From an uncultured bacterium (GTDB lineage Bacteria > Planctomycetota > J058): a stretch of DNA of 48,112 bases. Every line of letters starts with the position of its first letter. Positions within the stretch are counted from its first letter, which is position 1. Below, one piece after another: positions 1-15,700 of the stretch. The notes below the pieces were generated by a model, which saw only the letters and a list, made by a program, of their open reading frames with translations, was not told the DNA's origin and did no database searches. Position numbers and translations under genes: made by a program. Location: the NCBI GenBank assembly GCA_937911525.1, contig CALDQK010000927.1, positions 1 through 48,112 of the forward strand, in the 5' to 3' direction.

Positions 1-20
1 TCCCGGCGCCGGTCTACCTC

Positions 21-827
21 ATGGACCGCGCACAGGAGGACGCCAGCAGCCTGGGGATCTCGATCGTCGCTCGCTTCGGTTACTACGAGCCGCCCGCTCG
101 TGAGGGAGAGACGCGGCAGCGCCGCTTCGCGCGGCTCGACGCCCGGCGTGATCTCAAGCGCGGTGACTGGGTCGCAGACCCCGCCGCCAACCCCGTCGGG
201 CTTCACGAGGGGACCCGGGCGCCGAGCGCGCTGACCGAGGAGGCGACCCGCGAGCTGGACCAGATCGTCCAGCGAGAGGGGGCCGCCAAGGCCAAGCTCC
301 GCGCCCTGGCCTTCCTCTCTCGCTACTTCGAGGACGACTCGGTCACCGGCGAGCTCGGCCAGGACGAGCTCGCCGAGGATCGGATCGCTGCTCTCCAAAC
401 GCAGCTCGACGCGCAGGCCAAGGAGCTGAACTCGCTCCGCGTGGTCCTGGAGGGCTACGAGGCTGCCGAGGAGATCCGCCACCAGGACGAGAAGGCCGCC
501 TACCTCGAGGGTCTGCGCCAACAGTCCGCGGCGCTCAACGCCCCGATCGCCGCCGCCGACCTCAACGAAGTGGAGCGGCTCCTCGAAGGCGGCGACCTCA
601 AGACCGCCAAGGTTCTCGGCGAGGCCCTCCTCGCCCGCAGTCGAGCCGAGGGGCAGTCGGCGTTCACTCGCGACGAAACCACTGGGCTCGCAGCAGAGCC
701 CAAGGACCGCAAGAAGGCGTCCGTCGCCGCGCGCGTGAGCATGCTCCGCCGCCGCGGCTGGCGCGTCGAGACCAACCAGGACGGCACCGAGATCGTGCGG
801 GCCGCTCCGCGATCGGCAGGGAGGTAG
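21..827 (+). CDS. phage scaffold-like coiled-coil protein; frame open to window edge, possibly 5'-truncated
   Basis: The protein is Ala/Glu/Leu/Arg-rich with long helical stretches (ALQTQLDAQAKELNSLRVVLEGYEAAEEIRH). The reading frame has no stop from nt 3 onward, so it may continue upstream. It lies two genes upstream of a gpE-type capsid gene, the usual protease/scaffold slot. The function is positional inference. Confidence 0.45.
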   Translation: MDRAQEDASSLGISIVARFGYYEPPAREGETRQRRFARLDARRDLKRGDWVADPAANPVGLHEGTRAPSALTEEATRELDQIVQREGAAKAKLRALAFLSRYFEDDSVTGELGQDELAEDRIAALQTQLDAQAKELNSLRVVLEGYEAAEEIRHQDEKAAYLEGLRQQSAALNAPIAAADLNEVERLLEGGDLKTAKVLGEALLARSRAEGQSAFTRDETTGLAAEPKDRKKASVAARVSMLRRRGWRVETNQDGTEIVRAAPRSAGR

Positions 828-829
828 TC

Positions 830-1522
830 ATGCCCGCAGTCCCAGGCGTCTACAAGCAGGAGCTCGAGGATCGGCGCTACATCCTCACCGAGCAGGGGCT
901 CGTTCGAGGGCGAGCCGTGGTGCTCGACCGAGACGCCCGCAGTCCGATCGCCCCGGAGCACCAGATCGAGCCGGGGACGGCGATCGTCCGCCGGCGCGGC
1001 AGCCGACGCTTCGTTCAGGCGGGCCACCCGGACGGCGAGCACAACCAACCCGCCGCAGTCTCGAGCCTCCAACCCGCGGACCCGGCGTGGGCCAACACGC
1101 TGATCACCGTCTCTCTGGCCGACGGGCTGGGATTCCCTGTGTTGCTGGACGCGAACGCCGTCGACAACGCCGCGGTCCTCGACCAGCTCAACCAGGACCC
1201 GCCCTTCGCCGCCCAGTTCCTGGCCGACGAGGACACCAACGGCATGATCCGCGTCCGAACGCGGGACGCCGGCGCTGGCTGTCGGCTCCATGTGCAGGCT
1301 TCGATCCCGGCCGCCTTTGGCCCCAACGGCTCTGCCGCACACGGGCTCGACGCCGACTACCGACTGACGGACGGCTGGGCCGATCTGCTCGAGCTCGGCG
1401 AGGGGCCGACCCCCTACGTCGTGCCCACCGTCCTCGCTGGGCACTTCGACGAGTCCCAACTCCTCCACCTCACCCCTGAAGCGCGCGTCGTGCTGACCCG
1501 ACGCGGCTCGATCTTCGGCTAG
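830..1522 (+). CDS. hypothetical capsid-module protein (decoration/auxiliary slot)
   Basis: GGGAGG lies 5 nt upstream of the ATG, which starts 3 nt after the previous stop. GC3 is high. The gene sits between the scaffold-like gene and the major capsid gene, as gpD does in lambda. No motif was recognised. Confidence 0.5.
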   Translation: MPAVPGVYKQELEDRRYILTEQGLVRGRAVVLDRDARSPIAPEHQIEPGTAIVRRRGSRRFVQAGHPDGEHNQPAAVSSLQPADPAWANTLITVSLADGLGFPVLLDANAVDNAAVLDQLNQDPPFAAQFLADEDTNGMIRVRTRDAGAGCRLHVQASIPAAFGPNGSAAHGLDADYRLTDGWADLLELGEGPTPYVVPTVLAGHFDESQLLHLTPEARVVLTRRGSIFG

Positions 1523-1530
1523 GAGCCGGC

Positions 1531-2619
1531 ATGACCACGGCCATCGACGACCTGCTCTCGGTCGAGACGCTCACCGGCATGATCCAGACCTTCGCGGACC
1601 AGGCCGAGAATCGCAGCTGCTCCGCGCTCTTCTCCCGCGCGGCCCGCCCCCTCTACCCAGAGGGCGACTCCGCGAGCTGGGACGAAGTCGTCTTCTCACG
1701 TCACCTGGCGCCGGTCTCGGGCCCCGACAGCCCCCACACCCGTGCCAAGCGGCTGGGGCGTAGCAAGCGATCGAGCTCCATGGCCATGGTGAAGGTCTAC
1801 AAGGACCTCCCCTCCAGCCACCTGTTCCTCCAGCGCGCCCCCGGCTCGAACATGGCCGACGCCGAGGCCGTCCTGACCGCTGAGCTCGAGGACCTGGCGA
1901 ACCTGATCGCCAACACCAAGGAGTTCCTCGCTTGCGGCGCGCTCCTCGGGAAGATCGAGGTGAGCCCGCAGACCGTGCCGGGGAGCGACATCAACTTCAC
2001 GGTCGACTTCGGGAACAACAAGGCCGACGCACAGCAGGCGTGGAACGACCCCGCCGCTGAGATCCGCTCGAAGGAGATGCTGCGGATCAAGCAGCTCTTC
2101 AAGGACCAGTCGGGCATGCGGGCGGCGATCGGGATCACCGAGCCGACCGTCGAGGGCTACCTCGTCCAGAACGTGGAGATCCGCGAGTTCGCAAAGCAGC
2201 CCTTGGGCGCGGTGATTCTCCGCAACCTCAACCTGAGCGGCGTGAACCCGCAGTGGGAGATTCTGGCGGGCCTGAGCTGGCAGTTCACCGACGGGACCTA
2301 CAAGCCCGAGAACGCGGACGTCCAGCGCTACTTCCCCAACGACCACGTCGTCGTCCTCCCCGGGGAGAACCGGCTGCCCCAGGTCCTCGGCTGGGCGGAA
2401 GGGAAGGTCCACGTCCCGGCGGGACCGCTGGCGGCTGGTGCCCAGTCGGCCCTGAGCCTGATCCAGGAGCTGCGGGGCACCTACGCCTACGCCGAGGTCC
2501 GCACCGACCCCGTGGGGATCCGCGTCTACGCGGGCTGGTATGGCCTCCCCGTCGTCCTCAACCCCAACGCCGTCCTGACCTACCGAGTCGTCCCGCAGGC
2601 CGTCACCCCCGCCCCCTAA
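1531..2619 (+). CDS. major capsid protein, lambda gpE family (Phage_cap_E-like)
   Basis: The 362-aa protein has the size and C-terminal layout of lambda gpE. Compare YFPNDHVVVLPGENR..GWAEG and YAEVRTDPVGIRVYAGWYGLPVVLNPNAVLTYRV here with FLPDNTMVLGNTQARGLRTYGCI and YPKNWVTTGDPAREFTMIQSAPLMLLADPDEFVSVQL in gpE. An AGGAG RBS precedes the start. Confidence 0.75.
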   Translation: MTTAIDDLLSVETLTGMIQTFADQAENRSCSALFSRAARPLYPEGDSASWDEVVFSRHLAPVSGPDSPHTRAKRLGRSKRSSSMAMVKVYKDLPSSHLFLQRAPGSNMADAEAVLTAELEDLANLIANTKEFLACGALLGKIEVSPQTVPGSDINFTVDFGNNKADAQQAWNDPAAEIRSKEMLRIKQLFKDQSGMRAAIGITEPTVEGYLVQNVEIREFAKQPLGAVILRNLNLSGVNPQWEILAGLSWQFTDGTYKPENADVQRYFPNDHVVVLPGENRLPQVLGWAEGKVHVPAGPLAAGAQSALSLIQELRGTYAYAEVRTDPVGIRVYAGWYGLPVVLNPNAVLTYRVVPQAVTPAP

Positions 2620-2638
2620 CGCCCAAGGAGCGTGAACC

Positions 2639-3067
2639 ATGGCTTTCCAGCGTGGCCACGCGCTGGTGCCCAGCGTGGTGCGCGTGGTCCAACTCACCGG
2701 TGCCCAGGACCTCAAGAACCTGGAAGCGACCGGTGAGCTAAACCTCACCGACCTCCTGGTCACCGCGTCCGACGCGATCTTCGACAGGCTGGTGGCGGAC
2801 GGGCTTACTCCTGGGGCGCTCGCCAACCCCGAGGTCTACGAGCGCGCGGTGGCCTTCCAGTTCCTGGGGATCCTGGCCGCTCAGGGCTACCTCGACGGAC
2901 AGGAGACGGCCCAGTCCGTGGCCGAGCGCCAGTTCGAGCTCTCCGATCGCTACTACGAGCAGGTCCGTCCGCGCGTGCGCGGCGGCGACGCGCCGCGCAC
3001 GGCGACCGAGGCCATGCCCGAGGTCATGAACGTCACGCCGACCCCTCTCCTGGGAGGACGCCCGTGA
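2639..3067 (+). CDS. hypothetical head-completion/connector-slot protein
   Basis: The 142-aa ORF has an AAGGAG RBS and lies immediately downstream of the capsid gene. The function is assigned from position only. Confidence 0.5.
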   Translation: MAFQRGHALVPSVVRVVQLTGAQDLKNLEATGELNLTDLLVTASDAIFDRLVADGLTPGALANPEVYERAVAFQFLGILAAQGYLDGQETAQSVAERQFELSDRYYEQVRPRVRGGDAPRTATEAMPEVMNVTPTPLLGGRP

Positions 3068-4584
3068 TCTTCTCCGTTCGCGCCACGGCCGAGTCCTTCG
3101 CACGCGCGCTGCGCAAGGCCTGCGCACGTCTGCTCCGAGGCCGCGGGCCCCGGGTCCCTCACGACGGGACCCGGGGCCCGCCTCGCACGGAGGTTAGGCG
3201 GAAGGCCCAGCAAGTTGGTGGGGATCTGCTGCTCGTCGTGGCGGTCGCCGTCCTCTGTCAGGCCTGCTCCGCGCCAGAAGTCAGCGTCACGGTCGCGGAC
3301 CCGAAGGTCTACGGCGACGACACGGTCCTGCGACGGCTGGCCGAGCAGCGCGAGCAGCTCCCCGCCCTAGCGCGGGGGATTCGCGCTGGCGACTACCAGG
3401 AGGCCTTCGGCGTCCGACACGAGGAGCGGTCCCGCGCGACCTTCGGCGTCAACCTCGTGGACCCCGACGCCCCGGGGCCGACTCCGCCTCCCGAGCGCCG
3501 CGGGAGGAGGTGGCCGTGGTGGGCCGGAAGCTACACCGTCCCGCCGCTCCTCGTCCCTGGCCTGACGTCCAACCAGCAGCTGCGCCAGCGGGTCGACACC
3601 TCTCAGCAGATCGCGGCCTACGACCTCCTGTTCCAAGGCGACGCCCGCCTCCGCGATCGGCGTAGCCGCGTCGCCTTGATCCGGTTCGACCTCTCCTTCA
3701 ACCGCTACGTCGACCTCGGCGGACGCCGACGTTTCGCGGTCGTCGAGTTCCAGGTCCGTCCAAAGCACAAGGAGACCCCGCAGTTCTCGGTCTACCTGCT
3801 GAGCCCCGCCTACTCGGCCATGGTCAGCCAGGAGGCGGCGGTTCAGCAGTCGGTCAGCGAGTACGCCGCACAGGTGCTCGGCTCCTGGGGCGGGATCGGT
3901 GCCAACGGCAGCTACGGGAGCCGTGAGCGCCTCCGTGAGGAGTTCGAGGCGCTCCTGGAGACGCCGCTACAGTTCGCAGTTCATGACTCGCGGCGCCTCG
4001 AAGGAGGGGGACTCCGCTTCGCTTTTGCCTTCGGCCCACGACGACGCCTGATCGAGCGCGGCCGACTCAACCCGGCGCGATGGTTCGGCTCGGCGTACGA
4101 CCTGGCCTACGAGCTCCAGCCTGGCCCGCGCACCTGCCAAGCGCTCGTTGTGTTCCACGACGTCGCGCCAGACGCCCCGCTGGAGTTGGAGGTTCAGGTT
4201 CGCTCCGACGGCCGTCTCGTGGCCGAGGAGGAGGTCGACGTCGGGCTGGCCCTGCGGCCCTCCCTGGGCACCTTCGCCGTCGCATGCCCCCAGGGCTCGA
4301 GCACGAGACAAACCGCGCGGCTGCGGCTTTCGGCTGGCGTCCCCGGCGACGTCGTCCTTACGTCAGGTGCTGAGGGGCCGACCTTCTCGGCGGAGAGCCA
4401 GGTCTTCGTGGGGCAGCGCCGCGTCGAGCCACGGGACGTCCGGGTTCTTGGGAGAGGTCGGCTCGCGGTGCGCGTCCGTCCCGACCGCGCGCTCCGCCCC
4501 GGGATCTACACGGGCCGAGTCATTACGCCGGATCAACCAGACCTGACCTTCGAGGTGGCCGTCGAGAAGAGAGGAGAGCAATGA
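3064..4584 (+). CDS. membrane-anchored/secreted hypothetical protein in virion module
   Basis: A GTG start overlaps the previous stop (GTGA). A long basic N-terminal region precedes a single hydrophobic helix (LLLVVAVAVLCQACSAPE) and then about 430 aa with no recognised domain. There is no in-frame ATG/GTG/TTG between the hairpin and the helix, so the start is uncertain. Confidence 0.55.
   Translation: MIFSVRATAESFARALRKACARLLRGRGPRVPHDGTRGPPRTEVRRKAQQVGGDLLLVVAVAVLCQACSAPEVSVTVADPKVYGDDTVLRRLAEQREQLPALARGIRAGDYQEAFGVRHEERSRATFGVNLVDPDAPGPTPPPERRGRRWPWWAGSYTVPPLLVPGLTSNQQLRQRVDTSQQIAAYDLLFQGDARLRDRRSRVALIRFDLSFNRYVDLGGRRRFAVVEFQVRPKHKETPQFSVYLLSPAYSAMVSQEAAVQQSVSEYAAQVLGSWGGIGANGSYGSRERLREEFEALLETPLQFAVHDSRRLEGGGLRFAFAFGPRRRLIERGRLNPARWFGSAYDLAYELQPGPRTCQALVVFHDVAPDAPLELEVQVRSDGRLVAEEEVDVGLALRPSLGTFAVACPQGSSTRQTARLRLSAGVPGDVVLTSGAEGPTFSAESQVFVGQRRVEPRDVRVLGRGRLAVRVRPDRALRPGIYTGRVITPDQPDLTFEVAVEKRGEQ
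3143..3181 (+). promoter_or_regulatory. 16-bp perfect GC stem-loop (GCGGGCCCCGGGTCCC / tcacgac / GGGACCCGGGGCCCGC)
   Basis: Read directly: arms 3143-3158 and 3166-3181 are perfectly complementary around a 7-nt loop. It lies about 75 nt after the stop of the 2639-3067 gene and inside the 5' end of the 3064-4584 ORF. There is no T-tract. Confidence 0.6.
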
Positions 4585-5081
4585 GCCGCCTCCTGCCCCT
4601 GCTGCTGCTGGTCCTCGCCGGGTGCCAGCGGCCCTACCCGCTCGACGAGCGCTGGTGCCCGCTGGTGGAGGTCGTCGAGCGGCCCGACCTCTTCGTCTCG
4701 GACACGGTCACGACCACGATCGGGACCCGGATCTACGTCGCGAACCTCGACCTGTGGCTGCAGCGCTACCCGCCGGGCAGCGTCGAGCAGGAGGCGCTGC
4801 TCTCGCACGAGCGCGAGCACTCCATTCGGCAGCTCGAGGCTGGGCTCGGCCCGTGGCTGGCTCGTTACCTCAACGACCGCGATTTCATGTGGCGCGAGGA
4901 GCAGCTCGGCTGGGCCCTCGAACTCCGCCACCTCCGGGACGGTGGGCGCCCCGTCGTCCCGGCTGGCGTCGCGTTCACCCTCAACGGCTACCAGAACCTC
5001 AGCGGGACCATGGTGGGCTACGACGAGGCCCTGGCCTGGGTCGAGGCCGTCCTCTCCGGTTCGTGGAGCCCTGAGTCGTGA
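4581..5081 (+). CDS. lipoprotein with HExxH motif (putative Zn-metallopeptidase-like)
   Basis: The N-terminus MSRLLPLLLLVLAGC is a canonical lipobox (LAGC). An HEREH (HExxH) motif is present in ALLSHEREHSIRQLE. The start overlaps the upstream gene's stop as ATGA. Confidence 0.65.
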   Translation: MSRLLPLLLLVLAGCQRPYPLDERWCPLVEVVERPDLFVSDTVTTTIGTRIYVANLDLWLQRYPPGSVEQEALLSHEREHSIRQLEAGLGPWLARYLNDRDFMWREEQLGWALELRHLRDGGRPVVPAGVAFTLNGYQNLSGTMVGYDEALAWVEAVLSGSWSPES

Positions 5082-5497
5082 GCTTCCACGAGGACCTGAT
5101 CCCCCTGTTCAAGCGCGACCTGGCCGCGGTGCTGGCGGTGGTGCCCGATGCGATCTACGTCGGCGACCAGCCCCAGAAGATCACCCGCCAGGGCCTGGAG
5201 GTGTGGGTCGAGCCAGGCGCCGGGGGCGTCGCCCAGGTGGGCGCCCTCAAGGTCCACCCCTACGTGTTGCACGTCCGCCTGAAGACCCGCCGCGGGCCCA
5301 GCCTGACGGGGGCCGACGAGATCGCCCGGGTGAGGAGCGCGCTCGAGACCCTGCAGGCGCGCTACGACGGCGCCCGTCCCTTTGTCGCCGATCTCCCCCT
5401 CCTGCTGGCGGTCCAGGCCGAGGGCTCCTCGGTAGAGACCGACCCAGAGAGCGGCGCGCTCGACGGCAGCCTCCAGCTCAAGCTCCTGGAGGCCTAG
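5078..5497 (+). CDS. head-tail joining / tail-completion-like protein (DUF3168-like, weak)
   Basis: The 139-aa ORF starts with a GTGA overlap. Its size and pattern (AIYVGDQPQ ... HPYVLHVRLKT ... ADEIARVRSALETL) loosely resemble phage tail-completion proteins. Confidence 0.4.
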   Translation: MSFHEDLIPLFKRDLAAVLAVVPDAIYVGDQPQKITRQGLEVWVEPGAGGVAQVGALKVHPYVLHVRLKTRRGPSLTGADEIARVRSALETLQARYDGARPFVADLPLLLAVQAEGSSVETDPESGALDGSLQLKLLEA

Positions 5498-5498
5498 C

Positions 5499-7034
5499 GT
5501 GGCGGACCTGCGCAAGACTCCTGAGGCCTGGCAGCGCTTCGTCGGGCAGGAGTTGGTGGGGACGTTCCTCTCCGCTCTCCGCGAGCTCCAGGAGCTCGAG
5601 GACCGCTACCGAAAGCAGCGGACCCAGGTGCTGGCGCTGAACAACACCCTCCCCAGCGTGGCGGCGGGGCGACGCGTCACGCTCAAGGGCGTGCGCTTCG
5701 GCGTGAACACGACGCTGGGCGGGCTGATCTTCGCGCGGATCGCGGGCGCCCCGGGCTCGCGCACGGTCTCGCTCTACAAAGCGCCGGGCGCACCAGCCGC
5801 CGCGCTCGTCGCCGAAGGCCAGGGCGCGCCGGGCGCCGACGTCGCCCTCGCCCCGCGGCAGGGCTCAGGCCTCTCGGGGAGTTGGCCACTCCCGGTCGGA
5901 GCACAGGACACCGTCGGCGACACCCTGCAGCTCTTCCCCGTCCTCGACTGGCCGCTGCGCGTCCGGGCGGTGTGGGACGGCAAGAGCGAGAAGGACCTGG
6001 ACTCCCAGGAGGTCTTCCTCGCGGCCCTCAAGGGCGTCGCGCGGCGCATCCAGGGCGCCCGCCAGGTGCTCGCGGAGGCCCTGTTGCGCTTCAGCTCAGG
6101 CCACGGCTCTCGCGGCGCTGAGTTCCTTGAGCTCAGCACCAGCGCCGCGGTGACCGACGCGCGCGTGCGGGACCGCAGCGGCGCGGTCGCTCGGCGACGC
6201 GCGGGCTTCCTGCCTGCGCTCTCGGCCGCCATGGAGGAGGACAGCTTGGCCGGGGAGCAATCCGTGGTCGAGCGGCTTGTCGCCGCCAGCCCCGGCGTCT
6301 TCTCACCCAAGAACCGCGGCCAGGGGCGGCTCGACGCCCACCAGCCCCGCGAGTTCTGCGTGGCTGCCCGCTGGACGTTCCGCTGCGTCCGGGGCGAAGA
6401 CTCGGGACACGGCGGTCGCGAGGAGTTCGCGTGCACCGCGAAGGTCACCGGCGAGGACCGGACGATCCAGTTCAGCGGGGTCCGGGTCGGCCAGTCCTTC
6501 TCGGGGCCGGAGGGAATCGGCCCCTTCGTCCTCGAGCGCGTCTACACCAAGACCAAGGACGACCAGCACGAGCACCTCGCCAGGGCCAAGGAAGCTGCCG
6601 TAACGGGCGAGCGCTCGGGGAACACCGACGGTGGCGTCCTCTACTGGCGGATCGAGCAGCTCGGGAACATCTTCCGCGTCTACTTCTACCGTTCCGCGAA
6701 CCGCGCCCAAGGCGACCTCGTCGCCGAGGCCCAGGCGCCGGGCAGCGGGCTCCCCTTCGTCGCCACCGAGCGGCAGGTCTCCGGCCTGAACGTGGTCTGG
6801 CGGCTGGGGACCCGCCCACAGGACAGGGCCGAGGGCACCCTCGACTGCAACTTCTTCCGCGTCGAGAACCAGGCAGGCGTGCCCGACACCTTCGTCGTAA
6901 CGACCCGGATCCAGAGCGAGGGCCTGATCCAGAAGGTGCTGGTCGAGCAGCTCGGCGGGACGCTCCACGGGAAGCCCGCCGGCCAGGAGACCATCTCCGA
7001 CGACCACCTCCGAGCGGGAGTGCTCTTGCCATGA
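5499..7034 (+). CDS. hypothetical virion structural protein with internal duplication
   Basis: The 511-aa ORF starts at a GTG 2 nt after the previous stop. Two related segments are visible: SLYKAPGAPAAALVAEGQGAPG..SGLSGSWPL and VYFYRSANRAQGDLVAEAQAPGSG..VSGLNVVWRL. No known family was recognised. Confidence 0.6.
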   Translation: MADLRKTPEAWQRFVGQELVGTFLSALRELQELEDRYRKQRTQVLALNNTLPSVAAGRRVTLKGVRFGVNTTLGGLIFARIAGAPGSRTVSLYKAPGAPAAALVAEGQGAPGADVALAPRQGSGLSGSWPLPVGAQDTVGDTLQLFPVLDWPLRVRAVWDGKSEKDLDSQEVFLAALKGVARRIQGARQVLAEALLRFSSGHGSRGAEFLELSTSAAVTDARVRDRSGAVARRRAGFLPALSAAMEEDSLAGEQSVVERLVAASPGVFSPKNRGQGRLDAHQPREFCVAARWTFRCVRGEDSGHGGREEFACTAKVTGEDRTIQFSGVRVGQSFSGPEGIGPFVLERVYTKTKDDQHEHLARAKEAAVTGERSGNTDGGVLYWRIEQLGNIFRVYFYRSANRAQGDLVAEAQAPGSGLPFVATERQVSGLNVVWRLGTRPQDRAEGTLDCNFFRVENQAGVPDTFVVTTRIQSEGLIQKVLVEQLGGTLHGKPAGQETISDDHLRAGVLLP

Positions 7035-7237
7035 CCCAACGCCGAAACGCCGTGTCCCTCCGCGAGCTCGCCTTCGTTCGCGACGTCCTGATCCCACGCG
7101 CCTGGGTCCAAGGCGGGGAGGTCGACGAGCTCGTTCGGCTGCGCGCCCGGATCGACGCGATCTTCGCCGAGGTCGGACAGTCCGCGGCCGAGACCGGCGC
7201 GAGCGGGGAGGCGCCTCGTGCTACTGCAGCGGACTGA
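7031..7237 (+). CDS. small hypothetical protein (68 aa), translationally coupled
   Basis: The ATG at 7031 overlaps the TGA of the upstream gene (ATGA). It is the in-frame tail of ORF-track entry 6431..7237. It encodes MTQRRNAVSLRELAFVRDVLIPRAWVQGGEVDELVRLRARIDAIFAEV... Confidence 0.4.
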   Translation: MTQRRNAVSLRELAFVRDVLIPRAWVQGGEVDELVRLRARIDAIFAEVGQSAAETGASGEAPRATAAD

Positions 7238-7496
7238 GAACCCGGTCGTGAGCGGCGCGAGTCGAGCGCTCCTGGTCGTGACGCTCGAGCAGGCCGTCCT
7301 GTGCCGCGCGCCGCTGGGCGTTGATCCGCTGCTCTCGATCGAAGAGGAGCGCCCCACCTCCGAGGACGCCGAGCGCCAAACCAAGCGCCAGGGCGATCCG
7401 CGCGACCGGCGACCAGGGAGCAGGCGCGAGCGCCCGCGCCCGGCTCCTGCGGTAGTTTCGGCGTCGAGGCCGGCGAGGCCTGATCGTTGCTGGCAT
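7221..7496 (-). CDS. small single-pass membrane protein, antisense to the virion module
   Basis: The ATG is preceded on the minus strand by AGGAGG with a 6-nt spacer (gcAGGAGGcgcccaATG). An Arg-rich N-terminus is followed by one TM helix (IALALGLALGVLGGGALLF) and a polar tail. It occupies the only sizeable gap in the plus-strand gene array. Confidence 0.5.
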   Translation of the reverse strand: MPATIRPRRPRRRNYRRSRARALAPAPWSPVARIALALGLALGVLGGGALLFDREQRINAQRRAAQDGLLERHDQERSTRAAHDRVLSPLQ

Positions 7497-7588
7497 TGGG
7501 CGCCTCCTGCGCTCCCTGGCGACAGCAGGACACTACCTCGACCTGGCGGACACCCCAAGGCCGATCCAGGGGCCCACAGGCGGCGCCT

Positions 7589-8959
7589 GTGAAGCTCCAG
7601 CTGGAGATCCAGGGGCCCGCCGCGCCCTTCCGCTTCGACGTCCCGGGGCTCTTCGAGCCGCGGCTCGAGGCCTCCTGGAAGGAGGCCTCCAACCCACGGG
7701 AGGTCACCGAGGTCCGGGAGGTGTGGGAGATCCGCGGTGCTCGGCTCGTCTCGCCAGACGGGACGCAGGCTGCGCTCTGGTCGCGCTGGCGGGAATTCAC
7801 CGACCGGCTGCGCCAGCGCTCGGGGCCGCGCTGGGTGCGACTCGTTCGAGAACCCCAGGGCGCCCGAGAGGTTGTCTGGACGCTGGGGCCGCCCGAGTAC
7901 GAGGAGCTCAAGGTCGAGCGGCTCTCCGCCGGCGAAGACCCCCTCGCCCCCTCCGCCACCTGGAGCGTGCTGGCGAGCGTGACGCTCGTCGTCTCAGCAG
8001 CCCGCCGCCTTCAGGACGCTCGCGGGATCGTGGGCTGGGAGCAGGACGTCAGCTCGACCTTCACGCCCGGCGGGCTGCACGTCCTCGAGTGGCGGACGGA
8101 GCTCACGACCCGGGAGGGCACCTCGGCGGTCGAGAAGGCCCGCCAGTTCGGGCGGATCGACGTCCGCCCCTTCGGGGACCACTACTCCTACGACACCAAC
8201 GGCCCCGACGGGGTCGAGGTGACCGCTTTGGACGCCGACGAGGTGACGGGCCGCGTCCCGACGGTGGCCCTCGCTGTCTCCCGGATTCACCAGTGGGGCG
8301 TGCGGGTTGGCGCGATCGGGCCCGGCACGAGCCCGACCGAGGTGGGCTACTCGACGCGACGCAAGGTCGAGAAGGGGGAGACCCTGCGCGTCGTCCGCGC
8401 GTCCGCGCGGGGACCGGGCGCGCTGCGCTGGGTCGAGCTGCGCGAGCCGCCGGGCGCCAAGAAGAGCAGCGAGGTCTTCCATGAGGAGGCGGCGCGCTTC
8501 GCCGAAGGGGTGTGGACGTTCCAGGAAGACCCCGAGGAAGAGGACGACCCCGAGAGCGCCCTGAACCGCCTGGAGCTGCGGCTGGCGCTCTCTGGAGGCC
8601 ACGTCGGCTTCGACTTCGAGCCCGTTGTCGGTGGCTATGAGCCGGTCCTGTTCGAGGGCGCGATCCTGCCCTGGACGCTGACGGCCCAGGTCAAGGTCAA
8701 GAAGCGCGGAGGAGAGGGAAAGCCCGCCGATCTCCTCCTGCCCGGCGAACTCGGCGACCCGTGGCGCCTGGACCGTCAGGCCAGTCGCGAGAGCCTGCCC
8801 TACCTAGCCGAGCCGAGCAGCGAGCCCGACTCCAGGCTCTGGGCGCGGGACGCGACGCTGGTCTACCGCGCCGCACGCCGCCCTGACCGCTGGCCCTCAG
8901 AGGCGCTGAAGGACGCGCGCCCCGTGGAGAGCTACTGGCTCTCGGGGGCCCGACCATGA
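7589..8959 (+). CDS. hypothetical virion (tail-region) protein
   Basis: The ORF track gives 7487..8959 from a TTG that would overlap the antisense gene's start. The next in-frame start is GTG 7589 (VKLQLEIQGPAAPFRFDVPG...). No domain was recognised. Confidence 0.55.
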   Translation: MKLQLEIQGPAAPFRFDVPGLFEPRLEASWKEASNPREVTEVREVWEIRGARLVSPDGTQAALWSRWREFTDRLRQRSGPRWVRLVREPQGAREVVWTLGPPEYEELKVERLSAGEDPLAPSATWSVLASVTLVVSAARRLQDARGIVGWEQDVSSTFTPGGLHVLEWRTELTTREGTSAVEKARQFGRIDVRPFGDHYSYDTNGPDGVEVTALDADEVTGRVPTVALAVSRIHQWGVRVGAIGPGTSPTEVGYSTRRKVEKGETLRVVRASARGPGALRWVELREPPGAKKSSEVFHEEAARFAEGVWTFQEDPEEEDDPESALNRLELRLALSGGHVGFDFEPVVGGYEPVLFEGAILPWTLTAQVKVKKRGGEGKPADLLLPGELGDPWRLDRQASRESLPYLAEPSSEPDSRLWARDATLVYRAARRPDRWPSEALKDARPVESYWLSGARP

Positions 8960-9312
8960 GGCGCTTCCGACTCGACCTCCGCGCCGTCTTCCGCCGCTTC
9001 GGCAAGGAGGAGCAGCAGGCCTGGGCCGAAGCTGTCGCCGCTCAGAGCCCGAAGAAGACGCCTGACGACAAGGGCACGGGGGGCTCGCTCCCCGCCAAGC
9101 TCAAGGCGACCAGCGTGCTCAAGGTGCGTGCCTGGGGCTTCGCGCTCCAGCTCCACACGCTTGGCCAGAAGCTGACGTGGTTCGTGCGCGGCACCAAGCG
9201 ACAGAAGGCGCGCCCGGTGGAGGTCGAGACCGACATCGACGGACTCGCCGCCACCGTCGAAGCAGAAGCGCAGGCCCAATTCTCGGCCTGGGATCGGTCG
9301 AGCAATGCCTGA
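8956..9312 (+). CDS. hypothetical protein, tail-assembly-chaperone slot
   Basis: The 118-aa ORF starts with an ATGA overlap on the upstream gene. It lies two genes upstream of the tape-measure-like gene. Confidence 0.5.
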   Translation: MRRFRLDLRAVFRRFGKEEQQAWAEAVAAQSPKKTPDDKGTGGSLPAKLKATSVLKVRAWGFALQLHTLGQKLTWFVRGTKRQKARPVEVETDIDGLAATVEAEAQAQFSAWDRSSNA

Positions 9313-9481
9313 GGAGAGCAAGCGAGTCGTCGTGAAGGGCCTGAAAAAGGCGGAGAAGGAGTTCCAGAAGTATCTGCGCCTGCGGATCGGTGCAGAGAAG
9401 ACCGTGGCCCAGCTCGAGGAGGACCTAAAGGAGGCCCTGGCCGAGGTGGAGCGTCAGCTCGAGGAGGAGCGCCGTGGCTAA
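9305..9481 (+). CDS. small coiled-coil protein (58 aa), not in ORF track
   Basis: Hand translation gives MPEESKRVVVKGLKKAEKEFQKYLRLRIGAEKTVAQLEEDLKEALAEVERQLEEERRG followed by a stop. It overlaps the upstream gene by 8 nt and the downstream GTG start (9474) by 8 nt. GC3 is high except for AAA/AAG codons. Confidence 0.45.
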   Translation: MPEESKRVVVKGLKKAEKEFQKYLRLRIGAEKTVAQLEEDLKEALAEVERQLEEERRG

Positions 9482-10145
9482 GACGATCGTCCTGAACTTC
9501 GCCCTAAAGAAGCTGAAGGCGGCAGAAGAGGCCGCCAAGAAGATCCTGGTTTCGGTTCGCAAGAGCACCGACCTGAGCAAAGAGGAGCGGCGGGACCGGA
9601 GCAAGGCCGCGCGCGAGAGCCTCAAGGAGATCCGCGCACGGAGGCGCTTCGAGCAACGCCGGGCGAAGCTTCAAGGGCGCGCGAACGCACTCCGGGGCCG
9701 CGACCTCCTCGCCGCGAGCCGGGGGCGTTTCAGCGGGCTGTTCGGGACCGTCGGAGAGGCGCGCGAAAAGGGCGAGTCCTTCGCCAACGCGCTCTTCGGG
9801 GACGGCGAGATCTCCCAGAGCCTCCCTTCGTTGATCAGCGGCGTCGGGCAGTTCGTTCCCGGGCTCGGGCCCTTCATGACGCTCCTCGCTCCGCTGACCG
9901 AGAAGCTCCTCGGCCACCTCGAGGAGCGGCTGCAGCAGGAGCTGGCCAAGCAAGAGACCCGGCTGCTCGCCCGTCTTGAGGAGCAGCGTTTTCGCATGGA
10001 CTTCACCCGGCGCTTCAAAGAGGACCCGGCCTTCGCCCGGGAGCAGGCCCGCCAGGCGCTCGAACGCACCGTCGCCGAGGAGGCCAGGCTTGGGAAGCGG
10101 ATCCAGAAGACCACCGCCGACCTGGTCACCGACTTCGGGCTGTAG
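9474..10145 (+). CDS. short tape-measure-like protein (223 aa)
   Basis: The protein is highly helical and charged (KKLKAAEEAAKK, EERLQQELAKQETRLLARLEEQR). A central Gly/hydrophobic segment (LPSLISGVGQFVPGLGPFMTLLAPL) is present. It sits before the large distal proteins. The call is compositional and positional. Confidence 0.45.
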   Translation: MAKTIVLNFALKKLKAAEEAAKKILVSVRKSTDLSKEERRDRSKAARESLKEIRARRRFEQRRAKLQGRANALRGRDLLAASRGRFSGLFGTVGEAREKGESFANALFGDGEISQSLPSLISGVGQFVPGLGPFMTLLAPLTEKLLGHLEERLQQELAKQETRLLARLEEQRFRMDFTRRFKEDPAFAREQARQALERTVAEEARLGKRIQKTTADLVTDFGL

Positions 10146-10147
10146 CC

Positions 10148-12709
10148 ATGAGCGGGACCGTAGCGACCTACCAAGGCTTCCCGTGCCGCAGCGTGAGCTA
10201 CCGACGCACGCGCGGCTGGACCGCGGACACCTCGGAGGTGCTCCTTTTCGCGGCGGACTTCCCCCAGGGCTTTCAGTTTACGACCCCGGCGCCTGGCGAC
10301 CTGGCGCGGGTTCGTCTGCGCACCGCCCCCAAGCCAGACCTCAGCCCGATCCGCGTGGCCCAGGCGCAGCCGCCGCGACCGTTGCCGCGGCTCCGGCGTC
10401 TCGACTTCGCCGGTGCCCTCGTCATGGCGGAGGTCGACACCGAGGGGCGGGAATACGCGGTCGTGGTGGACCCGCTGTTCTGCGTGGCGCTGGAGACCGT
10501 CCGACGCAACGCGGATGGTTCGGTCGCGATCGCTCGCGCGCGCCTTGTCGACGCCCGCTTCTTCTACGCGCGCGGGTTCCTGCGCCGCTGGTCGTTCAAC
10601 CGCACCGACGCTGAGTCGAACTACGCCAAGGACAGCGTGAAGGAAGACGGCCAGGCCTTCTCCCTGGCCGAGATCGCGGGCCAGGTCGCGCAGGGGCTCT
10701 TCCTCCAGCCCAAGCTCAGCCATCGCCCGCAGGAGTGGGAGGAGACGCGCCCCGAGACCGAGTTCCGCCGCTTCTCCTCGGCCATGGCCGCCCTCGCCCG
10801 CCTCGCGCAGGACCATGGCACCGAGGAGCTGTCGCTGAACCTCGACGGCTCGGTCGCGCTCTACGAGCCGGGCGAGGGGAGGGTCGGCTACGCGCCCGAG
10901 GGGCGCGGCTCAAAAAACGAGGCCGATTTCCCCCGCGGGCTCCAGCTCTATCTGGAGGGGACGGGGCAGAGCCGAGGCGTCGAGGCGACCTATCCACCCG
11001 ACTGGGTTGTCGTGGTGGGCGGGCTCCGCGTGGCGACGGTCCGCATGGACGAGCTCGACCCGGTGCTCGTGATCGACAACGAGCCGATCCCCCTCACTGA
11101 GGAGGCCGTCCGCAAGCTGACGAAGAACAAGTACGGTCTGACCTGGCTGAAGAAGTTCGTGCTCGCCCCCCAGGCGTACCAGAACGCGGTGGACGTCGAC
11201 CCGCGAGTCGTCCTGCTCCTGCGCGAGCAGGCCTACCGCCTCTGGCGAATCCCGAAGGTCGAGAAGGAGATCACCCCCAAGGAAGAGGGCGGCAAGGCCG
11301 CTGCACAGGCCGGGCCCAAGCAGGGCCCGATCAGGGTCCGAGGCCCCAACGCGCACCTCCTCCCCCTCCGCGCCCGAGCCGAGACGACGGCCGGGAAGCG
11401 CCTCCCGATCCGGGTCGACGCCTACCGATTCGCGTCGGCGCACCGCGCCATGGCTCCGAGCCGGGAGGCCCAGCGGATCAACGCCCTCAAGCGAGAGCTC
11501 GAGGACCTCAAGCGCCAGGCTCAGTCCGCGGCTCGCCAGTCCGCCAAGCCCGACCCTTGGCACCGGCTCGACGCCTACTACCTGTTCCAGGACCGCTACG
11601 TGAGCCCGCGCCTGCTCTATGCGATCACGGGAGCGCGGAGTCACGGCGTCGCCTACGAGCAGTTCCAGCAAATGGTCTCGCGCGCACGCCTCGTGGATCG
11701 GATCAGCGAGGTCGCCCCCAACCTGGCCAGCCGCTACGACAGCGTCCTCGGCGAGCTGTTCCAGATCGAGCAGGAGTTCGGGGGCATTGGCCAGAGTCTC
11801 TATCAGTTGGCCAAGGAGGCGGTCGAGTTCGAGAAGCGGGTCGCCGAGTCGCGCAGCGCCCTCGAGACGCCCAACGAGGAGGCCAGGGAGCGGGCCCAGG
11901 AGCTGCGCGACAAGGTCAAGGACGAGCTGCGCGCGATCGATCGCCAGCGCCAGGAGCAGGGGACGCGGACCCAGATCGGGGCCCAGCGCCGCGCCAAGCC
12001 TCAGACGGCGGTCTTCATTCGCAACCTGCCCCGCCGCCTGGACCCTGGGGCGCGGCTCTACTCGGCCGAGCTCGGCGTGATCCAGACGAGCGACCTATCG
12101 GGCCACGTCGCCGAGGAGGGAGTGCCGGTGGCCGAGGTGACGAGCTTCGTTCCCAAGTCGCCCCTGGTCTACTTCGGCGCAGTCATGCGCCCGCGCGCGG
12201 ACACTGCGAGCAGGCGCCCCGTCACGGGTGCCAGCCAGTCCAAGAGCGAGACCAAGATCCCCGAGGTGCTCTCGGATACCGAGAGCTACTACGTCGCTGC
12301 GTTCCGGCGAGTTCGCGGCGGGCGTGCCGAACAGGTCGAGCTCAGCGCCGTGCCTGAGGGGCAGGGCGTCCCGCTTGATCGACCGGATCTCGTCGAGCTC
12401 GTCCCTCTCGAGGGCCGGAGCAATCGCCACAAGCTCGACGAGACGGGGCAGACCGTCGCTCGCGGACTCTTCAAGCGCGCTGAGCGGGTCGAGGCTGCGA
12501 AGTACTCGATCGCTCGTCCATGGCCCGTGAACACCGACGGCGTCGTCTCGGGCGTCCAGATCGTGCTCCGCCCCGGTGGCAAGGGCTACGTCACGACGAT
12601 CTTCACCGGTGGCGAGTCACCCACCCTCGACCCGCTCGGGCGCACGCGAGTACGAGTGCGCCGCGGCGGCCCCTCGGACGCCGCAGCGCGGGAGGGCTTG
12701 CTCCCGTGA
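10148..12709 (+). CDS. large hypothetical tail/baseplate-region protein (853 aa)
   Basis: A long ORF with uniform high GC3. A central charged coiled-coil region (RELEDLKRQAQSAARQ; EEARERAQELRDKVKDELRAIDRQRQEQ) is present. No catalytic motif was recognised. Confidence 0.6.
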   Translation: MSGTVATYQGFPCRSVSYRRTRGWTADTSEVLLFAADFPQGFQFTTPAPGDLARVRLRTAPKPDLSPIRVAQAQPPRPLPRLRRLDFAGALVMAEVDTEGREYAVVVDPLFCVALETVRRNADGSVAIARARLVDARFFYARGFLRRWSFNRTDAESNYAKDSVKEDGQAFSLAEIAGQVAQGLFLQPKLSHRPQEWEETRPETEFRRFSSAMAALARLAQDHGTEELSLNLDGSVALYEPGEGRVGYAPEGRGSKNEADFPRGLQLYLEGTGQSRGVEATYPPDWVVVVGGLRVATVRMDELDPVLVIDNEPIPLTEEAVRKLTKNKYGLTWLKKFVLAPQAYQNAVDVDPRVVLLLREQAYRLWRIPKVEKEITPKEEGGKAAAQAGPKQGPIRVRGPNAHLLPLRARAETTAGKRLPIRVDAYRFASAHRAMAPSREAQRINALKRELEDLKRQAQSAARQSAKPDPWHRLDAYYLFQDRYVSPRLLYAITGARSHGVAYEQFQQMVSRARLVDRISEVAPNLASRYDSVLGELFQIEQEFGGIGQSLYQLAKEAVEFEKRVAESRSALETPNEEARERAQELRDKVKDELRAIDRQRQEQGTRTQIGAQRRAKPQTAVFIRNLPRRLDPGARLYSAELGVIQTSDLSGHVAEEGVPVAEVTSFVPKSPLVYFGAVMRPRADTASRRPVTGASQSKSETKIPEVLSDTESYYVAAFRRVRGGRAEQVELSAVPEGQGVPLDRPDLVELVPLEGRSNRHKLDETGQTVARGLFKRAERVEAAKYSIARPWPVNTDGVVSGVQIVLRPGGKGYVTTIFTGGESPTLDPLGRTRVRVRRGGPSDAAAREGLLP

Positions 12710-15700
12710 GGAACCTTCCGCCCCGCGACGGAATCACTGCCACCGACCTCTGGGTCCCTGTGGACGCCACGGGCGAGGATTTCTACGCCCTGGGCCAGCG
12801 CTTCGGCACGCAGGTCGGCGTCCTCAGCGAGCTCCACGACGAGACGGGCCACCCCTACGTGCTCGTCGAGGGCACCGGCTTCTTCGACCCGCGCTCCCTC
12901 CGCTACCACCGCCTCCAGCGCCCGACGCCCACCGGGATCGAGGACAACCGCCTCGCGATCCAGATCCTGAACGACTACGAGGCCGAGTATCAGGACGTGC
13001 GGCCCGGGGACGCCCCCTTCGCGCAGCCCGAGTTCTTCACGGCCCAGAACCGGACGACGCGCGAAGCCGATACCAAGGGCCGAGTGGCGCTGCCCAGCTC
13101 CCACCGCCGGATCATTGACTCCGAGGACGACCGCTACGCATTGGCGCTGACCTGCCGCAGCGTCCCGCTCCAGGCCGCAGAGATCGAGATAGCCCCGGAC
13201 GAGCCCGACGCGGCCGCCCCAGACGCTGTGCCTGAGGGAATGGCCTTCAACGACGCTGGCACACGCAGCGGCACCCACGGCTCAGTAACCCAGACCGCCC
13301 CCTCGGTCTCGGTCGGCGGGGTGACCTTCTTCGGTGGCGCCGCGGTCTCGGCTGCGCGAAACGCCCTCGCTCAGGGCGGCAGCGTGGCGGACGCGGCTCG
13401 GGCGGCCAGCGCCGCGGCTCGGGGACTCCCCCCGCCCCCTCTCCAGGACGCCGGCACCCGAGAGCGCGGGAGCCAGACGGGCCCGACCGAGACTCGTGAG
13501 CCACCGCCCGAGCCCGATCGCAACCAAGGCGGCAGCGTCCCGCTCCTGAACCATCCCAAGGGCTACGTGTGGTCCGAGGCGGATCGGATCGGCCTCTTGG
13601 GGACACTCGTCGCCCCCGAGGGCGCTGGCGGCTCCTACTTCGCCGGTCGCGAGGGGACGCCGATCGGCCCGCTCCCGATCCGCCACGACGCCCAGTTCAC
13701 CATGGGGCCTGAGCTGGTCGGGCGGGTGGTGTTCGTCAGCAACGACGCCTCGGAGGTCCCGGAGGGTGCCGGAAAGCCGATCAAGGGCGAGCTGTGGGCC
13801 GATCGCGGCCGCGCCAACGTCGACACCGAACTCGGGCTCGAGACGCTTCAGTGGCGGCCCGTGATCCGTGTCGATGCCGACCTTCCTCCCAGCATGCCGC
13901 CTCCGCAGCCGCCGCCCTGGACCTGGCTCCCGCCGCCCCGTGAGGAGGAAGACGAAGACGACGAAGAGGAGGACAAGAAGAAGAAGATTCCGCCCAAGAA
14001 GCCGGGAGGGAAACCAAGCGGATCGGGCAAGAAGCCCCCCGTAGGCGAGGGCCCCGGGGTTAGCTCAGGCGGGGGAATCCTCGTGGCCGGCGGCGGCTTC
14101 ACGCCGATCCCCGTTCCACCGAGGCGCGAAACCTCCAACGGCAGGACCGGCGACGGAGACCTCGAGCCGATCGAGAACCCTCGCTCCCAGACGCGGGACT
14201 ACGAGGGGCCCGGTGAGCCGTGCCCCAACGCCACCGCAGGTGTCCTGGTCCACGCGCCCGGCACGTCCGTCGCCACGGGCAGCACGTCGGTCGGCGGCCT
14301 CCCCGTGATTCCGGTTCCAGGCGGATACATAGAGTTCTTCGGCCACCCCGGCCTGACGCCCGTGCCCGGCGGACTCGTCGTCGGCGGCGAGCAATCGCAC
14401 CGCCTGACTCTGGGGCTGCCCACGCCGCCTCGCCGTGGTGTGGGAGTGGATCCCGCACCAGGTCGTGTGCCTCGTGGGCGCCGAGTGCCAGGCGACGACC
14501 CCGGGCGAGTCCCGCTGGGCCTGCCGACTCCGCCTGGCGCCGGGATCGGAGTGGAGCCAGGCCCCGACGACGGAGTGCCGCGAGGCCGCCGTGTCCCGGG
14601 CGACGATCCCGGGCGCATTCCGTTGGGTCTCCCCGGGCGAAGAGGCCCGGGCCTCGGCTTCGAACCTCCCCTGGGAGGGGACCGAGGGATTCCCCGAGGC
14701 TACGAGGAGCGCCTGCAGCGGCGTCGCCGCCGAGAACGCGCTCGCCGAGCCCGAGAAGAGCGCGACCGTCGTGAGCAGGAGCGGATCGACGAGCTCGAAG
14801 ACCTGGAAGAGCGCGCGCGCGACGCCGGTCGCGAACGCCTCGCCAACCGCGTCGGTCGAGCACGCGAGCGCGTCGAGCGGCGCCGTCAGCGGCGAGAGGA
14901 TCGGCGTCGGCGTCGCGAGGAGTACAAGGAACGCAAGCGCCGCGAGCGCGAGGAGCGCCGGCGTCGCCGGGAGGAGCGACGCGCAGAGCGCCGACGCAAA
15001 CGCGAAGAGCGTCGCCAGCGGAGGAACCGGGAGCGCCAGGCCCGTAGGGATCGAGGAGAGGAGCGTCGGCGACCGCCGCAGGGCGGCTACATGATCGACG
15101 TCTCCAGCCCCGACGCCATGGAGCACAGCCTCGGCCGCCTGACCGCCGACGAGCGGGCGAAGTACGAAGAGGACAAGCGCAAGGAAGAGGAGGCTCGCCA
15201 GCGCTACCAGGCCACCTTCGGGGACTGGAACACGGCCAACACGCCCCTCGGATTCCTCGGCGCGCCGGGTGGACCCCGCTCCCTCGAGGGCTGGGCACAC
15301 CTCGCAACCTTCCAGGTCCGCGCCATGCAGCGGGTCGTCAACGGCGCCTTTGGTGGCCCCAGTTACCTGGCCGCGAACATCGGCGTCGTCCATCGCAACC
15401 GCCCAGGCAACCCTCCCGCAGGGTCACGGATCGGCGCACACTGGACTCCTCTTCCAAGAGAGCAACGCCTCAAGCTCTGCCGTGGTCAGGCCCCGCTCGA
15501 AGTCGTCTCTGTCCTCGAGGCCCCGGCCGGAACCGAGGTGGAAGCATGCGGCGGCGGGGTCCTTGAGGTCGTCCGTGAGCACCGCGGCGAGGGGTTGGTC
15601 ACGGACCCGCGGCCGCTGATCCTCCTGGAGAACGCCAGATCCCACAGCCCGGAGCTGATCGACGCCGACATGATCTCCGACGTCCAGCGCCGGTTCTACG

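Follow-up and report, generated by a model that had tools for sequence, protein, structure and literature searches.

That phage late operons can encode envelope lipoproteins is well established, examples being exclusion proteins, spanins and the products of conversion genes. Moron or cargo genes in the late operons of temperate phages, following the concept of Hendrix and Juhala, include lom and bor of lambda, gp15 of HK97 and cor of phi80 and N15, and Cor is a phage superinfection-exclusion lipoprotein. Among zincins of the M48/M56 type, BepA and LoiP are periplasmic or lipoprotein proteases. We know of no enzyme-like zincin lipoprotein with a dedicated partner that has been described in an envelope role in a phage late operon, and to our knowledge almost no phage biology exists for uncultured Planctomycetota-like bacteria. 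This study concerns two adjacent genes, here termed A and B, within a prophage structural module on a 48,112-nucleotide contig of an uncultured member of the Planctomycetota (GenBank assembly GCA_937911525.1, contig CALDQK010000927.1). The entire 48-kb contig (C927 in our numbering) was analysed and is referred to as the window; its bin comprises 10.2 Mb in 1342 contigs and is 90% complete and 6% contaminated.

Three further systems are relevant. In phage P2 the lysis module, including the lipoprotein LysC whose gene overlaps the tail gene R, is located between the capsid-completion genes (L, X) and the tail-completion genes (R, S) (PMC3091744). Llp of phage T5 is a small phage lipoprotein blocking FhuA (PMC9586334). 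The DUF4157/eCIS_core domain has been named 'PVC-metallopeptidase', its function itself being unknown (PMC8213781).

Results

With a probability of roughly 60%, A and B are read here as a two-gene accessory cassette of the moron type, encoding two exported, lipid-anchored envelope proteins and not components of the virion or of its assembly. The pair is phage-borne envelope lipoprotein cargo belonging to two unannotated protein families (Table 1).

Protein B begins with MSRLLPLLLLVLAGC, in which a lipobox, LAGC (L-x-G-C being conserved), ends in Cys15 (codon 4623-4625), a residue invariant among the close homologues. By these features B is a bacterial lipoprotein, i.e. a substrate of signal peptidase II. 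The homologues of A are 450-478 residues long and start about 15 residues before a cysteine, equivalent to Cys68 in the window, that was invariant in 21 of 21 aligned sequences. Since this cysteine sits in a classical signal of the type M-x-R-L...L-A-G-C, with L-A-G-C the box in most members, the A family is regarded as a family of lipoproteins. A test of the PS51257 type (short basic n-region, h-region, [LVI][ASTVI][GAS]-C, cysteine near residue 15-35) was passed by 45 of 49 close B homologues, 111 of 150 broader B-family members and 25 of 36 A homologues, the failures being chiefly due to truncated N-termini or to P or K close to the box. The subclade of A that includes the window has a non-canonical box, L-C-Q-A-C, with a cysteine at -3, and failed the strict PS51257 pattern; the two closest relatives, which carry no fusion (see below), have the same box. 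Judged as a lipoprotein, the 506-residue form in the window is marked by this box and by an n-region of 55 residues. The initial annotation had proposed that both products are targeted to the envelope, and the conservation of lipoboxes in both families supports this.

The cassette is both mobile and dispensable. The window's own bin contains at least six paralogous clusters that cover the complete structural module, with protein identities of 50-85%, and related genomes contain one or two; the copies in the bin represent either pronounced polylysogeny or an effect of binning in a metagenome-assembled genome (MAG) of 1342 contigs. The own-genome clusters lie on contigs C154/C1195/C611/C47/C794, C1282, C96, C477, C726 and C390. 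Because C96 has a Terminase_6N large-terminase gene upstream, the clusters are taken to be prophages. Ten clusters share the order g2639, g8956-like, g5078-like, A, B, g5499 (genes named by their start in the window). In C477/L049 the order is g2639, A, B, methylase, g8956-like, g5078-like, g5499, and the window displays a third, recombinant order of g2639, A, B, g5078, g5499; between B and g5499 there is thus a single gene in the window and three in C477/L049. Two clusters have no A-B pair: in C726 a methylase occupies the slot, and in G276:C66 (= L028) a g5078-like gene is followed by g5499 after 16 nucleotides. As is typical of morons, the pair is present in some and absent from other close relatives at a boundary of conserved genes. 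A stand-alone A-B pair was also found in G054:C114 (L004:3942-5950), between lpxB-like and xanthine-dehydrogenase-like genes, with no phage genes within 4-10 kb. B-like genes alone occur in C1303 and others, including ordinary chromosomal contexts. Overall, B is encoded in six of ten genomes of one bacterial family labelled Planctomycetota, and relatives exist in metagenomes too.

Both A and B are real, conserved genes under purifying selection. The stop codon of g2639 (2639-3067) and the GTG start of A overlap as GTGA at 3064-3067, with a Shine-Dalgarno sequence, GGGAGGA, upstream; the stop of A and the start of B overlap as ATGA at 4581-4584, preceded by GAGAGGAGAG, with a good Shine-Dalgarno sequence upstream of B as of A; and the stop of B overlaps the start of g5078 as GTGA at 5078-5081. 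The two open reading frames and these three overlaps are as initially annotated. GC content at third codon positions (GC3) reaches 0.84 in A and 0.94 in B, and close homologues number 36 and 49, respectively. Compared with three paralogous clusters, the ratio of nonsynonymous to synonymous substitution rates (dN/dS) ranged from 0.16 to 0.43 in A and from 0.24 to 0.37 in B, the corresponding values being 0.39-0.43 for the capsid gene and about 0.5 for the next structural gene; the value for A and its nearest relative was 0.16. A and B are thus under functional constraint, with dN/dS values no higher than those of the capsid gene.

The HEREH motif of B had been noted in the initial annotation, beside the lipobox, as being of the metallopeptidase type, and its H-E-x-x-H residues proved invariant across a very broad family. 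An exhaustive profile search recovered 566 representative clusters with an expectation value (E) <= 1e-3, 235 of them with E <= 1e-10 and 100 with E <= 1e-30. H76, E77, H80, E106 and E107 are all invariant in the close homologues; among 42 diverse members P27, T46, H76, E77, H80 and E107 are invariant, and Cys15, Q84, Y96, F102 and E106 nearly so. The AlphaFold2 model of B, with a predicted local distance difference test (pLDDT) score of 90.5, contains three short strands, an HExxH helix (residues 68-87) and an EE helix (100-120). As modelled, the fold is a minimal gluzincin layout, and the HExxH helix with a glutamate on the following helix would place B among the zincins. B is accordingly predicted, with catalysis presumed, to be a lipid-tethered zinc metallopeptidase using HExxH and a downstream glutamate.

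Comparison of B with the PDB by Foldseek gave nothing significant (VgrG2b effector, E 1.9; BepA, E 2.5, TMq 0.43; the thermolysin-like 1esp, E 5.4), the only thematic ones among these weak neighbours being zincins, and the best match in BFVD was an uncharacterised phage protein (TMq 0.50, E 0.35, not significant). Profile searches of the PDB with B and with A returned chance-level matches only. Pfam, PHROGs, NCBIfam and PADLOC contained no match to B at E <= 0.1 apart from a sub-threshold one to eCIS_core (PF13699, formerly DUF4157), of which B is not a member at 13.2 bits (E 0.1) and a gathering cut-off of 22 bits; five of the 42 diverse family members also gave sub-threshold matches to it, the best with E 0.021. 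For hhalign, a genuine DUF4157 domain alignment was built from the window's genome and related genomes, and this aligned with the broad B family at E 5e-5 and with the close B family at E 5e-6, compared with 0.3-0.8 for unrelated controls. The match is local, spanning 39-40 columns over a strand and the HExxH helix, with HEREH aligned to HELTH. Given a sub-threshold Pfam score and a local hhalign match only, any link to DUF4157 is therefore at most distant, and B appears to represent a new, unannotated family of zincin lipoproteins. The contigs encoding two distant B relatives are only about 1 kb long, and a scan of IMG/VR yielded one 245-kb contig with a B-like gene, on which a PHROG scan gave no confirmation of phage nature. 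As a separate observation, the window's own genome carries at C319:8670-11819 one open frame of about 1400 codons with three genuine tandem eCIS_core/DUF4157 domains, and multi-domain genes of this kind are present in most genomes of the bacterial family.

Protein A has a different layout. A conserved N-terminal hairpin/helix is followed by a Pro-rich disordered linker (residues ~109-168), an alpha/beta domain (~200-340) with the highly conserved segments TPLQF, FAFAFGPRRR, NPARWFG and YELQPGPR, and two C-terminal immunoglobulin (Ig)-like beta-sandwiches (~345-505). Its AlphaFold2 model has a pLDDT of 71.7, and Foldseek returned generic tandem-Ig matches only. No match to A was found in Pfam, NCBIfam, PADLOC or PDB sequences, and PHROGs gave only the sub-threshold phrog_34353 (E 0.024); a scan of IMG/VR was also negative. 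In hhalign the A and B families aligned at E 1.5e-4, with the alignment confined to the signal-peptide and lipobox regions. Named relatives of A come from Planctomycetota MAGs and one Nitrospiraceae. The distant members come from a MAG of the Nitrospiraceae and from several metagenome contigs, of which one carries the label Heimdallarchaeota; they retain lipoboxes and lie in non-phage, mobile-looking surroundings with TPS, toxin-antitoxin (TA) genes, a transposase, AbiTii and an AAA_15/DUF4435 pair. None of these distant members has a B gene beside it; the genes following the Nitrospiraceae and the L069 homologues of A were considered as B-like and rejected on comparison.

The initial annotation had described A as a 506-residue protein with a single transmembrane (TM) or signal helix and a long basic N-terminus. 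The size stands, but a membrane-spanning anchor describes A incompletely, its family now being recognised as lipoproteins; the basic N-terminus of 55 residues, from sequence comparison, is a gene-fusion scar specific to the window's lineage and not a feature of the family. By tblastn and protein alignment, residues 3-40 of A match the start of a 117-residue g8956-like gene in C154 and six other clusters, a gene that directly follows g2639 in most related clusters. DNA homology to C154, the closest paralogue, runs from the 3' end of g2639 to nucleotide 3182 and resumes at 3254 in the signal peptide of A, and about 700 bp of C154 are missing from the window at the fusion. On its left side the rearrangement breaks at the foot of a hairpin (Table 1), and the RNA fold of 3120-3260 has an energy of -80.1 kcal/mol (z = -2.8). 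The hairpin is kept at homologous sites of g8956-like genes in L040, L044, L047, L030 and L051, with some compensatory changes, and could be an RNA element or a site prone to recombination. A chimeric assembly at the hairpin was weighed as an origin of the fusion and rejected, because the same 506-residue protein, flanked by the same neighbours, is present in a SPAdes and in a MEGAHIT assembly made from other ENA samples, which gives three independent assemblies with the fusion; altogether the fusion is found in identical form on seven contigs from several assemblies.

A fusion of this type raises the question of whether A in the window is a decaying gene, disabled for export by 40 foreign codons and a lost start, with B as the sole working part. 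An alternative internal start was sought and rejected, as the stretch between 3064 and 3238 contains no ATG, GTG or TTG in frame, and the codon matching the start of A in its closest relative is GGG; the length of the n-region and the non-canonical lipobox also speak for decay. Against it, the frame is intact over 506 codons behind a good Shine-Dalgarno sequence, the identical protein recurs across assemblies, the L-C-Q-A-C box is common to the two closest unfused relatives, and the dN/dS against the nearest relative is low. Decay is a rather unlikely explanation, though one deserving some weight, and the fused protein may still be exported. A striking long basic N-terminus can, at any rate, be a recombination scar instead of a functional domain.

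The region surrounding the pair is as follows. Positions 1-16245 of the window hold a phage structural module, all on the plus strand and anchored as such by the major capsid gene, the one member that could be assigned to a family, and cellular genes, including a Cus-type efflux system, a Ser/Thr kinase and ATP synthase, lie beyond. No match in Pfam, PHROGs, NCBIfam or PDB profiles was obtained for the genes at 2639-3067, 5078-5497, 5499-7034 and 8956-9312. The neighbours of A-B had initially been labelled 'connector-slot' and 'tail-completion-like'; no family match confirms either label, and it is solely the position after the capsid gene that suggests a head-tail role. The divergent g8956-like paralogue has probably taken over from the copy lost in the fusion; at the equivalent position the other clusters are without a gene (e.g. 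L040, with a gap of 170 nucleotides). The gene at 7487-8959 probably has its true start at about 7585, because its homologues align only from residue ~30-35. Just 5' of it there is a small conserved open reading frame (7037-7237, containing AVSLRELAFVRDVLIPRAWVQGGEVDELVRLRARIDAIF), whose homologue in L029 (13919-14206) occupies the corresponding place.

Other cargo was found in or beside the structural genes of this prophage lineage, namely LpxR, an OmpL-like porin, an N6/N4 methylase, multiubiquitin-E2 with JAB-ThiF, and Kiwa KwaB. LpxR and the porin are both carried by C96, the porin gene lying between portal-like and scaffold-like genes. The methyltransferase uses the same head-tail slot as A-B, adjoining the pair in C477 and replacing it in C726. 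The gap between genes of the 5499-7034 and 7487-8959 types is a second cargo hot spot, nearly empty in the window.

Table 1. Coordinates of the A-B cassette, its neighbours and other cargo of the prophage lineage (window positions unless a contig or locus is given).
Feature	Coordinates	Strand	Remarks
Gene A, 506 residues	3064-4584	+	Lipoprotein-family protein
Gene B, 166 residues	4581-5081	+	Lipoprotein with predicted minimal zincin (gluzincin-type) domain
h-region and lipobox of A, DLLLVVAVAVLCQAC	3223-3267	+	Cys68 codon 3265-3267
HEREH motif of B, H76-E77-R-E-H80	4806-4820	+	Putative zinc-binding, catalytic site
E106-E107 (MWREEQ) of B	4896-4901	+	Candidate third zinc ligand on next helix
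Fusion scar, first ~40 codons of A	3064-3182	+	Corresponds to 5' end of g8956-like gene
Perfect 14-bp inverted repeat, 7-nt loop	3144-3178	+	Inside scar; left breakpoint at 3' foot
Major capsid protein, lambda-gpE type	1531-2619	+	Phage_cap_E (Pfam) 1.5e-22; phrog_29 major head protein 7.4e-30
g2639, 142 residues	2639-3067	+	After capsid gene; present in all paralogous clusters; family-less
g5078, 139 residues	5078-5497	+	3' neighbour of B; upstream of A in most related clusters
g5499, 511 residues	5499-7034	+	Conserved structural-module gene; directly after B in most pair-carrying clusters
Divergent g8956-like paralogue	8956-9312	+	29-34% identical; after 7487-8959 in window's cluster only (tblastn)
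LpxR lipid-A deacylase homologue	C96:2805-3647		Lipobox-like N-terminus; Pfam 5.7e-62
OmpL-like beta-barrel porin	C96:12010-13221		2.8e-32
N6/N4 DNA methyltransferase	C477:4615-5361, C726:19035-19775		Pfam 6.6e-33 (C477 copy)
Second hot spot	L029:10693-13537		XRE regulator, multiubiquitin-E2, JAB-ThiF
Second hot spot	L032:5805-7584		Kiwa KwaB and TM partner
Second hot spot	C96:20964-23231		755-residue Pro-rich membrane protein

Discussion

A plausible function for the cassette, as judged from its protein families and their setting, is that of an envelope-remodelling or phage-exclusion device. B would act as a lipid-tethered minimal gluzincin-type protease in the host envelope, and A, the bigger of the two lipoproteins, in which a Pro-rich linker provides flexibility and two domains are Ig-like, could be its partner, serving as a target-binding adaptor or as a substrate. 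Since the pair shares its strand with the late structural genes and is translationally coupled to them, its production would be expected in lytic growth at the least. The likeliest action would be to remodel an envelope protein of the infected or lysogenic cell by proteolysis. A receptor might in this way be masked or destroyed, which would exclude superinfecting phages and keep progeny from adsorbing to debris. The partnership of A and B, catalysis by B and the target are all presumptive in this scheme.

Several observations weigh against the moron-type reading or its functional extension. In positions 1-9500 no sigma-70-like promoter or intrinsic terminator was detected, the scan not including planctomycete promoter types; together with the tight coupling this agrees with the initial remark that the genes are not obviously transcribed independently. 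The GC3 of A-B resembles that of the neighbours, without the compositional contrast expected of morons, and the classical picture of a moron with its own promoter, terminator and distinct composition does not describe the pair. Of 14 distinct clusters in which the slot is visible, 12 retain the pair, and its divergence (44-80% identity) is about that of the structural genes. A-B has accordingly resided there for a long time, as opposed to being newly inserted, and could serve the phage cycle itself. The partnership is based on adjacency within one bacterial family, the A and B families being separate elsewhere. The structural matches of B in the PDB and BFVD are all non-significant, no homology of A-B to known exclusion or defence proteins was found in PHROGs or PADLOC, and the 55-residue extension with the L-C-Q-A-C box may compromise export of A in the window.

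The pair could instead be a lysis accessory that cuts outer membrane-wall protein tethers at release, a functional spanin substitute placed as in P2. Its position, strand and coupling match the Y-K-lysA-lysB-lysC arrangement, in which lysC overlaps the tail gene R (PMC3091744). The scanned parts of these prophages revealed no recognisable holin, endolysin or spanin, B is of the hydrolase type and exported, the IMG/VR-listed contig of 245 kb carries a B-like gene, and most clusters retain the pair. This explanation is nevertheless an unlikely one. In no cluster does a holin or endolysin gene adjoin A-B, the phage nature of the 245-kb contig is unconfirmed, C726 and G276:C66 are otherwise complete, and both the pair and the single genes occur in non-phage chromosomal contexts. 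The proteins also differ from spanins, one of the possibilities raised in the initial annotation: A is an Ig-domain lipoprotein of about 450 residues with neither the TM and coiled-coil layout of an i-spanin nor a C-terminal TM, and B is a globular zincin of about 150 residues and not a short Pro-rich lipoprotein.

Lysogenic-conversion cargo apart from any phage-phage conflict is to be doubted to a similar degree. A host-derived protease-adaptor pair might aid the lysogen through surface-protein turnover, stress tolerance or nutrient acquisition, and the occurrence of A-B beside lpxB, of B-like lipoproteins alone in ordinary chromosomal settings, of envelope-modifying LpxR and a porin in the same prophages, and the breadth of the B family (566 clusters) would all fit. 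Coupling to late genes in the absence of a detected promoter of their own favours expression in lytic growth, however, and members of the A family elsewhere are found amid TA, Abi and PARIS-like genes, which leans to a role in conflict.

A morphogenetic or virion-associated function, including the envelope-associated step in capsid or tail assembly suggested initially, is highly improbable: the pair does lie inside the head-tail part of the operon, translationally coupled and kept in most clusters, and B has a faint likeness to DUF4157/eCIS_core, a marker of phage-tail-like injection machines (PMC8213781), but tailed-phage assembly is cytoplasmic whereas A and B have lipoprotein export signals, two otherwise complete clusters manage without the pair, the slot is variable, the pair also occurs in non-phage contexts such as the chromosomal copy beside lpxB, and B falls well short of DUF4157 membership.

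The accessory moron-type cassette thus remains the preferred reading. A bolder extension of it, for which the odds are low, is that a lipid-anchored minimal zinc protease with an Ig targeting partner constitutes a new phage envelope weapon, produced along with the late genes. It would act by destroying the receptor used by the phage itself, which would amount to enzymatic superinfection exclusion and protect the progeny, or by cutting outer-membrane tethers to finish lysis in bacteria whose phages have no recognisable spanins. If this were true, the 566-cluster B family would represent widespread unannotated envelope proteases of phages and hosts, distantly related to the 'PVC-metallopeptidase' of extracellular contractile injection systems (eCIS). 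Neither the A nor the B family is represented in Pfam, NCBIfam, PHROGs or PADLOC in spite of the size of the B family, and the pair provides a defined candidate for a protease-based exclusion or release function. The locus also offers a possible evolutionary tie between B and the unexplained DUF4157/eCIS_core domain, and a view of cargo hot spots in the prophages of uncultured Planctomycetota-like bacteria.

Comparison with known systems

The cassette resembles the P2 lysis module in having envelope proteins, a lipoprotein among them, encoded at the head/tail junction by genes that share the strand of the structural genes and overlap them. It differs in lacking an adjacent holin or endolysin and a spanin architecture, and in being dispensable and present outside phages. 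The initial view that envelope-targeted proteins are atypical at such a position was overstated, considering the P2 precedent and the amount of cargo within the structural operon of this lineage.

With morons A-B shares its non-structural nature, its place between conserved structural genes, its patchy presence, its envelope products and the other cargo at nearby hot spots. Unlike typical morons, the pair has no detected promoter, terminator or compositional contrast, is old and kept in most relatives, and consists of two genes, one of them zincin-like.

In comparison with DUF4157, B has similar elements in the same order, namely a strand G-x-x-I/V-Y-V/F, P-G/x-S, A-L-L-x-H-E-x-x-H-x-x-Q and then an E-E/E-x-x-A helix, and each has an association with gene clusters derived from phages. 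Unlike B, which stands alone as a lipoprotein, DUF4157 is found as a cytoplasmic domain at the N-terminus of large toxin or cargo proteins. Gluzincins of the BepA/LoiP type have in common with B a core of small beta-sheet, HExxH helix and Glu-helix, as well as an envelope location; B is much smaller, without TPR or other domains, and the likeness is one for which Foldseek gave E >= 1.9 and the PDB profile search was negative.

Llp of T5 and Cor are, like A and B, phage-encoded lipoproteins exported by the Sec/Lol route, and they act on host envelope proteins, as A-B is proposed to do. Llp and Cor are receptor binders of about 60-80 residues, compared with about 450 for A and 150 for B, and a protease motif is a feature of B. 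Llp may serve as a non-enzymatic precedent for the exclusion role proposed here.

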